Positions 35,420 to 37,599 of a stretch of DNA of 64,000 nucleotides are shown one piece after another (positions within the stretch are counted from its first letter, which is position 1; each line of letters starts with the position of its first letter). The DNA lies in the NCBI GenBank assembly GCA_017472065.1, contig JAFURB010000017.1, forward strand, positions 5,887-69,886, read 5' to 3'. A program made the translations under genes and the position numbers. Under the pieces are notes generated by a model that saw only the letters and a program-made list of their open reading frames with translations, did no database searches and had not been told where the DNA came from. The DNA is from Alphaproteobacteria bacterium (GTDB lineage Bacteria; Pseudomonadota; Alphaproteobacteria; Rs-D84).

Positions 35420-36001
35420 ATGGCAACACTACATTTTCATTATGGCGTTATGAGCAGTTCTAAATCCGCCCGCCTAATTATCAATGCGTACAATTACAAT
35501 CAAAACGGCATCCAGACCCAGGTTATTAAACCATCATTTGACACACGATTTTCATCAGACACGGTCAAATCCCGGATTGGAATTGAAACACCGGCGATTG
35601 CCATGCCAAATTTAGATAATTTCACACCTGCGCCGAACACGCGTGTACTGCTGGTGGACGAAGTTCAGTTTTTTTCGCCATCTGATATTGATAAACTGGT
35701 TCGAATCGCCGACGACATGAATATCCCAGTTATGTGCTATGGTTTAATGAGTGACAGTAACGAACAAATGTTCCCTGCATCCAAACGGTTGATAGAGGTT
35801 GGTGCCGAATTACACCTGCACGAATCCAGTTGTCAAATAAATGGATGCATGGAATTGGCAACGCATCACCTGCGCTTTGACAAAGACGGCCACGTCATCC
35901 GCGCGGGCGATCAATTCGCCCTGGGGGATTCAAACTATAAATCCGTCTGCCGCGAACACTATAACATGCCGTACCACGGCATAGGTCAAAAAACCAAATA
36001 A
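35420..36001 (+). CDS. tdk: thymidine kinase (E. coli type)
   Basis: MATLHFHYGVMSSSKSARLI... aligns by eye to E. coli Tdk YYSAMNAGKST. C-terminal Cys cluster CQINGC...CREHY. The ORF-track start 35234 is rejected. Confidence 0.8.
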   Translation: MATLHFHYGVMSSSKSARLIINAYNYNQNGIQTQVIKPSFDTRFSSDTVKSRIGIETPAIAMPNLDNFTPAPNTRVLLVDEVQFFSPSDIDKLVRIADDMNIPVMCYGLMSDSNEQMFPASKRLIEVGAELHLHESSCQINGCMELATHHLRFDKDGHVIRAGDQFALGDSNYKSVCREHYNMPYHGIGQKTK

Positions 36002-36020
36002 CAAACACACAAATAAAAAA

Positions 36021-36040
36021 CCGACCAATTGGTCGGTTTC
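36021..36040 (+). terminator. intrinsic terminator after tdk
   Basis: ccgacc-aatt-ggtcgg followed by TTTC. Confidence 0.6.
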
Positions 36041-36047
36041 AAATTCG

Positions 36048-36124
36048 TGGCGCATCCAGAAGGATTCGAACCCTCAGTCTTCTGATCCGTAGTCAGATGC
36101 TTTATCCAGTTAAGCTATGGATGC
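36048..36124 (-). tRNA. tRNA-Arg (ACG)
   Basis: GCATCCATAGCTTAACTGGATAAAGC, anticodon loop CTACGGA, GGTTCGAATCC T-loop, encoded CCA. Confidence 0.9.
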
Positions 36125-36201
36125 AACGGATTGTTATTTTATATCATTTTATTCCAAATGCAAGCAAAAATAATATTTTTATACACATAAAAATTTTCAT
36201 A

Positions 36202-36230
36202 TTGAAAACTATTACATTTTTTAATAGCAT
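36202..36230 (+). promoter_or_regulatory. sigma70-type promoter TTGAAA-N17-TAGCAT
   Basis: Lies in an AT-rich spacer upstream of the structured leader. Confidence 0.4.
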
Positions 36231-36236
36231 TATTTA

Positions 36237-36466
36237 CGAACTAACAGGGATGTTGGTTCGGGGCCTTCATAAGCCCGGTTCATTCGGTGCGGTTTGCATC
36301 GTTAAGTCCGATTATGGTGCGGATTGCACCGTTATTTGCCCTGGCACACGTTGGTCGGGGGGCCGTTGGTATATATAATACGGGGAACCGAAAAACCAAC
36401 GGGATCAATAATGAACTGATTTTATGAACTCCCCGACCGCCAAGATTTTCCCTGGTGGTTTTTTTA
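36237..36466 (+). promoter_or_regulatory. candidate structured 5' leader / riboswitch-like RNA ending in an intrinsic terminator
   Basis: Nested helices ggtcgggg (36353..36360)/ccccgacc (36431..36438) and ccgttggt (36363..36370)/accaacgg (36395..36402). Twin hairpins ggtgcggtttgcatc and ggtgcggattgcacc. Terminator accgcca-N10-tggtggt followed by T7 (36436..36466). Confidence 0.45.
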
Positions 36467-36485
36467 TATACAACTGGGGGAAAAA

Positions 36486-37283
36486 ATGAAAAAAATAATA
36501 GCCACCATAGCCATGTGCGCCTTATCAAGTTCGGCGATTGCTGATTTTCTGACAGGCACAGATAATCGCTGTTTTATAGATACTAGCGGTTGGAACGAAT
36601 CTTGGTTTTGCGGTAAATCCGATGACAAATGTGCCGACAAAAAAGCGACTGGCGGGTACCGTAATCCGCATTATTTATATCACGGCGAATATTTTACAAA
36701 AGATTCGACCAGATATTATTGCTGCAACGGCACAACTGATGAAATCGGCAGATTTGTCAAAGCATCTAGCTTTAACAAAACAGAAACCATCACCGTACAA
36801 CTAGACGGTGGCGGAAAATGTAACTATAGCCGCAAAACAGACATTTGTGGCAATATCATCAAAGACGAGAAATGCACCACACCCGATAAATGCCCTGCCC
36901 AAACAATACTACGCAATGGACAATGTGTCACACCATGCATTGATGGATATGTATTTGAAAGCGCAACATTAAATCGATGTATTGAATGCCCAGATTCACA
37001 AACCCAAGGCATCCAAGGCATCGGCTATGACAAAAAATGCATACGATGTAAATCCACAGAAATCCTGAACAAAGATACATGGAAATGCGAAGATCCAGAA
37101 GCCCAAAAGAAACAATTACAAAAAGATGTTGCCACTGGTAAAAAAATAGCTATATCTCGTGGAATAATGGAACAGTGCTGGCAGTGCCCAGATTCTAATT
37201 TATATAAAGATTGTGTAAAAAGCCTGGCCAAACAGCAAGAACTATCAGATGCCATAAAAACAAAATGTAAAATCAGTGAATAA
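36486..37283 (+). CDS. secreted cysteine-rich protein (265 aa)
   Basis: Signal peptide MKKIIATIAMCALSSSAIA. GGGGGA RBS. Motifs CIECPDSQTQG, CIRCKSTE, CWQCPDSN. Confidence 0.75.
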   Translation: MKKIIATIAMCALSSSAIADFLTGTDNRCFIDTSGWNESWFCGKSDDKCADKKATGGYRNPHYLYHGEYFTKDSTRYYCCNGTTDEIGRFVKASSFNKTETITVQLDGGGKCNYSRKTDICGNIIKDEKCTTPDKCPAQTILRNGQCVTPCIDGYVFESATLNRCIECPDSQTQGIQGIGYDKKCIRCKSTEILNKDTWKCEDPEAQKKQLQKDVATGKKIAISRGIMEQCWQCPDSNLYKDCVKSLAKQQELSDAIKTKCKISE

Positions 37284-37290
37284 AAAATCC

Positions 37291-37326
37291 AAGGTCGGGT
37301 TCAAAATATGCCCGACCTTTTTTCTT
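37291..37326 (+). terminator. intrinsic terminator
   Basis: aaggtcggg-N11-cccgacctt followed by a T-tract. Confidence 0.7.
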
Positions 37327-37350
37327 TTGTTGAACACAAATAGATTTCTA

Positions 37351-37599
37351 TTACCGTACCAAATGTGGGCATTTGAATTGACTGATACAGCCCAACGCCC
37401 TGTCATACGATGCACAAATTGCACATGCCGATGACGGACTGCGAACCTCGGCCGAAACATCAGACATACTTGCCACATCTTGAGCAGCAGAATCTGCCGC
37501 CGCATCAACAGCCAGCGCACTATCCATTGCCGATCTGTGCCAAACCTTATTAGCGGCAACCGGCGCATTATCTTCGATAATATGACTTTCAATATACAT
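37351..37599 (-). CDS. small hypothetical protein (82 aa) with Cys-containing C-terminus
   Basis: AAGGA RBS 7 nt upstream of the ATG. Consensus promoter TTGACA-N16-TATATT on the minus strand (37632..37659). Confidence 0.5.
   Translation of the reverse strand: MYIESHIIEDNAPVAANKVWHRSAMDSALAVDAAADSAAQDVASMSDVSAEVRSPSSACAICASYDRALGCISQFKCPHLVR

Follow-up and report, generated by a model that had tools for sequence, protein, structure and literature searches.

A probable two-fold leader RNA family of Alphaproteobacteria, seen from one copy upstream of a cysteine-rich protein gene

What does a structured RNA of about 228 nucleotides (nt) do when it stands between a promoter and a terminator, directly ahead of a gene? 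The question is raised by positions 36202-36465 (+) of the window, the 64,000-nt stretch analysed here (contig JAFURB010000017.1, positions 5,887 to 69,886, assembly GCA_017472065.1, Alphaproteobacteria bacterium, order Rs-D84). Direct reading of 35800-37400 shows that this interval consists of a promoter, the structured RNA and an intrinsic terminator, and that it ends about 20 nt ahead of the ribosome-binding site (RBS) and ATG of gene 36486..37283. The product of this gene is an orphan protein of 265 amino acids (aa), rich in cysteine and with a signal-peptide-like N-terminus; a Pfam search assigned this protein to no family. We propose that the interval is quite probably a copy of a cis-acting leader RNA that can take up two mutually exclusive folds and that belongs to a large, uncatalogued family of gut Alphaproteobacteria (Candidatus Enterousia, order Rs-D84 and scattered families).

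Covariation in the leader and its alternative helices

An initial BLAST search of the genome to which the window belongs (its own genome: 0.83 Mb in 17 contigs, 80% complete) returned three further copies of the leader. Seventeen full-length copies from this and related genomes were aligned with MAFFT and folded with RNAalifold; the resulting consensus has 57 pairs, and compensatory double changes occur in 31 of them. A covariance model, R1, was built from this alignment. Among 51 distinct copies aligned to the model, 97.1% of the cells pair canonically and 47 of the 57 pairs show double changes, with a covariation score of 0.51, against at most 0.08 when the partners are slid by 1-3 columns. 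The helices of this larger count are already present in the MAFFT-only alignment. The minimum free energy (MFE) of the leader is -100.3 kcal/mol, against -71.1 ± 4.8 kcal/mol for shuffled sequences (z = -6.1). A first-pass annotation of this DNA, which suspected a riboswitch-like leader, had named conservation and covariation in relatives as the way to check it, and the outcome is strongly positive.

The fold brings the 5′ and 3′ halves of the leader together through two long-range helices. P2a joins 36266-73 to 36420-28, with changes on both sides in six of seven pairs (helix 3), and P2b joins 36276-84 to 36410-18, with such changes in all seven (helix 4). The outer arms of the P5 hairpin, CCGTTGGT at 36363-70 and ACCAACGG at 36395-402, are complementary. 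The strands of P2 also have local alternatives: a hairpin GGGC..GCCC at 36261-76, for which the compensatory variants GGAC/GUCC, GGGUC/GACCC and GAGG/CCUC were seen by eye and left uncounted, and a hairpin AUCA..UGAU that spans 36404-20. P3 is dispensable; it is short or absent in the class-B copies, described below, as it is in copies 3 and 6 of the own genome.

The G-rich and C-rich segments form a second system of pairing. GGTCGGGG at 36353-60, within segment 2, is complementary to CCCCGACC at 36431-38, within segment 3. This helix was counted on a second alignment, A3, which contains class-A, class-B and distant-relative copies and was fitted to the other structure. In A3, 95.6% of the cells of the segment 2:3 helix are paired, seven of ten pairs show double changes and 39 cells are changed on both sides, whereas in slid controls pairing does not exceed 65% and no more than eight such cells are seen. 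Furthermore, segments 1, 2 and 3 change as a matched set between sequence classes: the sets are CCCUGAC / GGUCGGGG / CCCCGACC, ACCUGACC / GGUCGGGU / ACCCGACC, CUCCAAC / GGUUGGAG / CCUCCAACC and CUCCUGAC / GUCAGGAG / CCUCCUGACC. Within a class, the segments are near-invariant while the other helices drift, because three strands must stay matched.

Segment 2 can pair with only one of segments 1 and 3 at a time, and segment 3 overlaps the terminator 5′ arm by 3 nt, since ACC at 36436-38 is common to both. Therefore, the layout is that of a relay with an anti-antiterminator (1:2), an antiterminator (2:3) and a terminator, in which the segment 2:3 helix is best read as the antiterminator, or ON, helix. 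Segment 3 has other alternatives as well: besides pairing with segment 2, it may pair with the 5′ G-run at the base of P2 or give up its ACC to the terminator. Segments 1 and 3 resemble an anti-Shine-Dalgarno (anti-SD) sequence, and segment 2 and the 5′ G-run resemble a Shine-Dalgarno (SD) sequence; that these likenesses reflect recognition by a ribosomal subunit is speculation.

How does this compare with the first-pass annotation? The two helices that it drew, 36353-60 with 36431-38 and 36363-70 with 36395-402, are real as complementarities, and the former, its outer helix, also covaries. It is not simply the P1 of an aptamer, as it competes with the anti-antiterminator segment 1 (36339-45, CCCTGGC), which the annotation overlooked together with the two long-range helices. 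What it took for two near-identical hairpins farther upstream are, by covariation, the two arms of the one long hairpin P3 (36285-36331). Its TTGAAA-N17-TAGCAT promoter was confirmed by direct reading and by a promoter scan, and so, by reading, was a terminator that overlaps the outer helix by 3 nt and lies about 20 nt before the RBS and ATG. The seven T residues that it placed after this terminator are reached only by including the final T of the stem; the run is 36459-65.

In the aligned copies, and in all 18 copies of the own genome, a TTGnnn-N17-TAnAAT box lies at a constant distance before a conserved 5′ GAAYC. Transcription of the window copy would start at about 36238. The terminator is of the intrinsic type, with a 7-bp G+C-rich stem (36436-42/36453-59) followed directly by the T-run. 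It was missed by a consensus terminator scan because the loop limit of that scan is 8 nt. In the model-fitted alignment of the 51 distinct copies, its stem (helix 9) shows double changes in five of eight pairs. The promoter scan gave no separate promoter between terminator and RBS in the window copy. Coordinates are collected in Table 1.

Table 1. Features of the window copy and positions of the class-B copies in the same genome
Feature	Position	Strand	Basis or support
Sigma-70-type promoter: TTGAAA 36202-07, 17-nt spacer, TAGCAT 36225-30	36202..36230	+	Promoter scan
P1, 5′ hairpin GAACUAAC-AGGGAU-GUUGGUUC	36238..36259	+	Both-side changes in 8/9 pairs (helix 1)
G-run (36260-63), then 5′ strands of P2a (36266-73) and P2b (36276-84)	36260..36284	+	Covariation
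P3, long imperfect hairpin	36285..36331	+	Both-side changes in 8/9 modelled pairs (helix 5)
Segment 1, CCCUGGC, anti-antiterminator strand; local pairing with GUCGGGG 36354-60	36339..36345	+	MFE and RNAalifold; helix 6, 98% paired
Segment 2, GGUCGGGGGG, G-rich, SD-like; partner segment 1 or segment 3	36353..36362	+	Near-invariant in class A; covaries with segment 3 across classes
P5 hairpin, conserved A/U-rich internal loop UAUAUAUAAUA, small apical hairpin	36363..36402	+	Both-side changes in 7/7 and 3/3 pairs (helices 7 and 8)
3′ strands of P2b (36410-18) and P2a (36420-28)	36404..36428	+	RNAalifold; covariation
Segment 3, CUCCCCGACC, C-rich, anti-SD-like	36429..36438	+	Covariation with segment 2
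Intrinsic terminator: ACCGCCA 36436-42, 10-nt loop, UGGUGGU 36453-59, U-run	36436..36465	+	Direct reading; covariation; folding
RBS GGGGGAA (36476-82) and controlled gene, ATG 36486, stop at 37283	36476..37283	+	List of open reading frames
Class-B copies, own genome (loci L178, L181, L180, L182, L184, L185)	C11:184-348, C13:212-371, C7:9777-9939, C5:201-367, C2:20286-20428, C16:21191-21332		

Distribution, downstream genes and expression platforms

With R1, 18 copies were found in the own genome at a cut-off of E<0.005. In the genus, 59 of 61 genomes match, with 1-37 copies each, and in the sample of the order Rs-D84 matches occur in 183 of 201 genomes (three of six families, 16 of 23 genera). 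Among other alphaproteobacterial genera, 14 of the 149 sampled have the leader, mostly in genomes of 1.2-3.5 Mb. One copy in a metagenome-assembled genome (MAG) from goat colon scores identically to one own-genome copy. A simpler finder, the sequence pattern GGTCGGGG..CTCCCCGACCG, was dropped, as a scan of contigs was swamped by chance matches in high-GC genomes. Many Sphingomonadales have GGTCGGGG-N62-CTCCCCGACCG with a constant span of exactly 80 nt; at L063, the only such locus inspected, it forms a tRNA acceptor stem and has nothing to do with the leader.

The position of the leader relative to genes is fixed. Each of the 18 own-genome copies has a -35/-10 pair just 5′, a hairpin and T-rich run at its 3′ end, and an RBS and start codon soon after. 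Among the 49 distinct copies with enough flanking sequence, 48 have an RBS-preceded open reading frame (ORF) on the same strand 0-35 nt downstream (median 20.5 nt), against none of 49 in a control for divergent orientation. The products of these genes begin with a hydrophobic, signal-like N-terminus in 33 of 48 cases. In the own genome they comprise the Cys-rich orphan protein, other orphans with signal-like N-termini (several also Cys-rich), an outer-membrane protein (OMP) β-barrel, a Listeria-Bacteroides-repeat protein, a GT2 glycosyltransferase, a PAP2 phosphatase and six small XRE-type helix-turn-helix (HTH) proteins. In distant relatives the genes encode OMP barrels, a Chlamydia-PMP-repeat protein, an autotransporter β-domain protein, lipoproteins, a chemoreceptor (methyl-accepting chemotaxis protein, MCP) and an FkbM methyltransferase. 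The theme is thus one of envelope and accessory genes, and no metabolic pathway is among them.

The output end of the leader differs between lineages. In several distant relatives that lack a terminator, segment 3 (CUCCCC) is predicted to pair with the SD sequence of the gene. In one example, CUCCCC..GGGGGA lies 6 nt ahead of a lipoprotein gene's AUG; in a second, UCCCCGGC..GUCGGGGA lies 7 nt ahead of another AUG. In other distant relatives a terminator-like hairpin is nested inside the SD-sequestering helix. By analogy, a conserved fold with interchangeable terminator and SD-sequestering outputs may be called typical of genuine regulatory leaders, and this variation supports the reading of 2:3 as the ON state.

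Have leader and gene evolved together? The closest homologue of the Cys-rich protein has 49% protein identity, yet its leader is 92.5% identical to the window copy. The two leaders differ in 22 columns, 17 of which are unpaired in the consensus; of the five differences in paired columns, four keep the pair, one of them by a double change. When 11 near-full-length homologues of the Cys-rich protein from other genomes are compared, a leader lies directly upstream of only four (three class-A, one weak). In addition, the region 3′ of tdk and tRNA-Arg holds different cargo in different species. Therefore, leader and gene appear to have been shuffled as modules over evolution. No sign of transposition was seen; a comparison with an orthologous empty site at tdk/tRNA-Arg is precluded by the cargo differing between species.

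The same locus offers several side observations. Positions 36017-36237 hold a unit of promoter, tRNA-Arg(ACG) and bidirectional terminator on the minus strand. In ten of 12 related genomes the same tRNA-Arg sits 3′ of tdk, on the tdk strand, which leaves two readings: an inversion, in this genome, of the unit of about 200 bp or of a larger block beginning there, or a misassembly of the MAG. At the tdk/tRNA-Arg locus of another species (L195, G014:C7), a 290-aa Cys-rich homologue lacks an R1 leader and is preceded by gcacgccccaggatttgaacc, which resembles a tRNA 3′ fragment; it may be driven by a different upstream module.

The class-B leaders are shorter (140-170 nt) and carry the segments CUCCAAC/GGUUGGAG/CCUCCAACC. 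They precede near-identical genes for XRE-HTH proteins of 72-76 aa, except at C5, where an 85-aa orphan ORF follows. Several own-genome copies of the family lie at contig ends; three class-B copies and the copy at C6:330-508 are about 200-330 nt from contig starts, after a common upstream sequence, aaacttttatttatataagtattgaatcc, and are therefore part of a larger repeat that breaks the assembly. This genome also contains a near-perfect palindrome of about 95 nt (L183, positions 1984-2078; C16, about 103683-103777), probably a palindromic repeat element. On both strands it weakly matches the Wolbachia small RNA (sRNA) WsnRNA46; the score of 33 bits falls short of the gathering score.

Resemblance to known RNAs

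In the window, Rfam 15 gave no match at gathering thresholds, and within 36100-36520 none even at E<=10, in agreement with the first-pass annotation, which could name no known riboswitch class. The annotation had also held that a match to a known sRNA would speak against its proposal. Among the 13 sister loci scanned, two copies gave full-length matches to sRNA-Xcc1 (RF02221), with 41.4 bits (E = 2.3e-4) and 35.4 bits (E = 6.4e-3); both are below the gathering score of 53 bits and so do not amount to the match that would have spoken against it, and matches to this sRNA were confined to sister copies. T-box and the other Rfam leaders had no significant match in these 13 loci. The leader family matches no published or Rfam family.

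The Xcc1 matches are instructive in their placement. Of positions 1-87 of the Xcc1 model, the closing helix falls on segment 2:3, the first inner hairpin on P5 and the second on AUCA..UGAU, which makes the 3′ half Xcc1-like in its ON fold: it has the three-way junction, in which a G/C-rich closing helix surrounds two hairpins, the first with an A/U-rich loop and the second short. The two RNAs share the G-rich/C-rich closing helix, a hairpin with a loop of the AUAnAAUA type, a second small hairpin, a C-rich tail and a U-run; both lie directly upstream of, and co-oriented with, a gene, and both can be multicopy. Unlike Xcc1, the leader has an extra 5′ domain of about 120 nt (P1, the G-run, the P2a/P2b strands, P3 and segment 1) that competes with the Xcc1-like fold; on our model, this competition would be what makes a switch. 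The host ranges also differ, being Alphaproteobacteria here and Beta- and Gammaproteobacteria for Xcc1, and Xcc1 has been described as a trans-acting sRNA. Thus, the family of the window leader is a relative of sRNA-Xcc1 and not a member of it.

Xcc1 is a discrete RNA of about 100 nt on Northern blots of Xanthomonas (PMC2996969). It lies upstream of symE in the most widespread integron cassette of Xanthomonas (10.1101/2025.06.18.660453) and upstream of an ORF6N gene in the APSE phage (10.1101/2020.03.17.996009). Xylella fastidiosa Temecula1 has seven copies, and in Xylella, too, Xcc1 is a discrete RNA; in X. fastidiosa pauca, copies adjoin C4 and isrK (PMC12189769).

The relay is built like leaders with terminator, antiterminator and anti-antiterminator, that is, riboswitch platforms, the PyrR-controlled pyr leaders and the trp-type 1-2-3-4 attenuators: 1:2 and 3:4 correspond to OFF and 2:3 to ON, the antiterminator shares nucleotides with the terminator, and the element lies between promoter and RBS. 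In contrast to these leaders, the present one has no conserved leader peptide, known protein site or ligand. It adds long-range, locus-specific helices and a second competitor from the extreme 5′ end, and it stands in dozens of copies per genome before unrelated genes. A trp-type leader peptide was considered and rejected. In 38 of 48 copies (equivalent to 36363-36420 of the window), the SD-like segment 2 is followed after 3-4 nt by a UUG, the only start codon that is conserved in position; the frames that it opens vary in length between 2 and more than 30 codons and have sequence in common only as the P5 helix dictates. The UUG is probably a by-product of the P5 helix sequence, and a ribosome-binding role for segment 2 is possible. 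A likeness of segment 2:3 plus GCCA to a tRNA acceptor was dropped as well, the CCA not being conserved.

Two further systems bear comparison. The riboswitches for cyclic di-GMP (c-di-GMP-I/II) are structured leaders that occur many times per genome before genes for surface, adhesion and secreted proteins, with varied platforms. The present family is like them in its many structured leaders before surface- and secreted-protein genes and in its varied platforms; its fold is different, and Rfam gave no match to them at E<=10. The c4 antisense RNA of P1-type prophages (RF01695) is made from the leader of the operon that it controls and has two short complementary sites comparable to P2a/P2b. The present leader, by contrast, pairs within its own molecule and has a terminator or SD hairpin as its output, and neither the window copy nor the 13 sister loci matched c4 at E<=10.

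The interpretation given in the first-pass annotation, a riboswitch or attenuator, holds in part, the attenuator layout being supported. As in riboswitches, a conserved, covarying structured domain lies in the 5′ leader, near the promoter, and shares nucleotides with a terminator or another platform that varies by lineage. The leader is, however, multicopy, and its mixed cargo is unlike that of a metabolite riboswitch; no metabolic or transport theme is common to the cargo.

A proposed switch and its alternatives

How might the two folds act on the gene? Folding in silico gives a first view of the order of events. When the window transcript has been made up to segment 3, it contains P1, P2, 1:2 and P5 (-86.9 kcal/mol), and the terminator 5′ arm is left free. 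For the full leader, the terminator state has -98.0 kcal/mol, a rod state, in which the 5′ end is paired with the terminator region, -99.8 kcal/mol, and a state with segment 2:3 forced -90.5 kcal/mol. When 48 class-A copies are folded only as far as the start of the terminator 3′ arm, P1 opens (probability 0.10); in 38 of them, 11 or more of the 25 nt at the 5′ end are then paired with segment 3 and with the 5′ arm and loop of the terminator. Complementarity also exists between the 5′ arm and loop of P1 and a stretch of the terminator made up of its loop and the beginning of its 3′ arm. This complementarity is locus-specific, with -9.8 kcal/mol for a copy's own terminator vs -7.1 kcal/mol for that of another copy, and none of 2000 permutations was as good, in a test that takes no account of relatedness among copies. 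By eye, at least six distinct sequence types can be told apart.

We propose that each copy would be transcribed from its own promoter as the 5′ leader of the following gene. In the OFF fold, which would be the default, P1 would form, P2a and P2b would join the two halves and segment 1 would pair with segment 2. This pairing would leave the terminator 5′ arm free, and therefore the hairpin and U-run would stop transcription about 20 nt before the RBS. In the ON fold, segment 2 (GGUCGGGG) would pair with segment 3 (CCCCGACC) and close the Xcc1-like three-way junction; part of the terminator 5′ arm would thus be removed, and RNA polymerase would read into the gene for the Cys-rich secreted protein. 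The 5′ end, from the P1 region, may act as a second competitor through its complementarity to the terminator 5′ arm and loop. The choice between the folds would be a regulated one, tipped towards ON by a factor in trans. Candidates are proteins, small molecules and ribosomal subunits, any of which might recognise the conserved G-rich and C-rich segments or the A/U-rich loop of P5.

Several points weigh against such a switch. The covariation counts from the 51 copies come from an alignment that was fitted to the model and is biased toward its structure. Among the 48 class-A copies, with the full terminator included, the terminator has a pairing probability of 0.83 (above 0.5 in 43 of them), while the segment 2:3 helix of the ON fold has an equilibrium probability of about zero in silico, which suggests that termination would be the thermodynamic default and that the ON fold would need help from a factor. 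The U-runs of many copies are interrupted, as in TCAACAT or TAATT, and termination may therefore be of modest efficiency. Lastly, tblastn searches of the own genome with Escherichia coli Hfq, ProQ, CsrA and RfaH found none of them, nor a second NusG, a weak negative in a genome that is 80% complete; Rho, NusA, one NusG and a CspA-like gene were found.

Could the switch be a true small-molecule riboswitch of a new class? A global signal, for example a nucleotide second messenger, would then bind the junction and co-regulate dozens of genes for exported proteins. A fold this elaborate, with many helices and a deep conservation that includes nucleotides of junctions and loops, would suit such a role, and so would a platform that varies between terminator and SD sequestration, as it does in established classes; the c-di-GMP riboswitches provide a multicopy precedent before surface-protein genes, and no obvious RNA-chaperone partner was found in the tblastn searches. 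We nevertheless hold it to be rather unlikely, as the downstream genes are without a common metabolic or transport theme and no ligand pocket was identified. Moreover, the most conserved parts are not the junction but three mutually complementary strands, which fit a pairing relay equally well. A metabolite riboswitch in particular is made less likely by the mixed cargo. The fixed position of the leader bears on another explanation, in which the terminated RNA of about 225 nt would itself be the product, a trans-acting or decoy sRNA, and the gene would be expressed by incidental read-through. The leader does have its own promoter and its own terminator, and its 3′ domain resembles Xcc1, a discrete RNA in Xanthomonas (PMC2996969) and Xylella (PMC12189769). 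This explanation is nonetheless improbable, since an RBS and start codon follow 48 of 49 copies at 0-35 nt in the same orientation, the window copy showed no promoter of the gene's own in the interval from terminator to RBS, and relatives without a terminator sequester the SD of the gene itself. P1, P2a and P2b are locus-specific, which suits intramolecular pairing over a common target in trans, and Xcc1 itself stands directly upstream of symE and ORF6N genes.

Since the OFF fold dominates all equilibrium calculations and no trigger was found, the leader might also be a constitutive 5′ module that does not switch, either a promoter with an insulator or a stability element, giving a fixed low read-through or protecting the 5′ end of the mRNA. 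A covarying alternative helix would, however, be needless for a fixed attenuator, and so would three-way matched segments across families and a second, locus-specific competitor of the terminator; accordingly, we give this explanation little credence. As for a mobile repeat akin to a miniature inverted-repeat transposable element (MITE), the copies are dispersed and numerous, several lie at contig ends, the 5′ end is complementary to the 3′ end, as terminal inverted repeats would be, and the Cys-rich homologues occur with and without the leader; effects on genes would then be incidental. We rejected this candidate as highly improbable, because orientation and distance are fixed (48 of 49 vs none of 49) and because the copies diverge by compensatory changes in nearly every helix and not by random decay. 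Near-identical copies in the own genome were seen only in class B, together with near-identical XRE genes, and no transposase association, target-site duplication or empty site was noticed. A cis-acting leader with two exclusive folds is the reading that we retain.

It is tempting to go further, although what follows is a tentative and rather doubtful extension. The leaders may form a new class of sensing RNA, in which SD-like strands (the 5′ G-run, segment 2 and the SD of the gene) and anti-SD-like strands (segments 1 and 3) make up a relay, locus-specific address helices (P1 with the terminator loop, P2a and P2b) stop cross-talk between copies, and one global input flips all copies; Xcc1 would then be a minimal, 5′-truncated form. 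If this is true, the global input might come from a second messenger, from an RNA-binding protein dedicated to the task or from free 30S subunits sensing the SD mimic, and the class would govern much of the exported and surface proteome, together with small XRE regulators, in host-associated Alphaproteobacteria.

What would a cis-acting leader of this kind mean for its hosts? Genomes of less than 1 Mb have very few regulators. Here, about 2% of all genes, chiefly those of the surface and secretome, stand behind one RNA device in abundant uncultured bacteria of gut and rumen, and the family extends to other alphaproteobacterial families, where it stands before genes for OMPs, autotransporters and lipoproteins. 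For sRNA-Xcc1 of integrons and phages, which is poorly understood, it also suggests a mechanism, namely that of an antiterminator or anti-sequestor domain working in cis. The trigger of the leader, once found, would show how these symbionts switch their surface.

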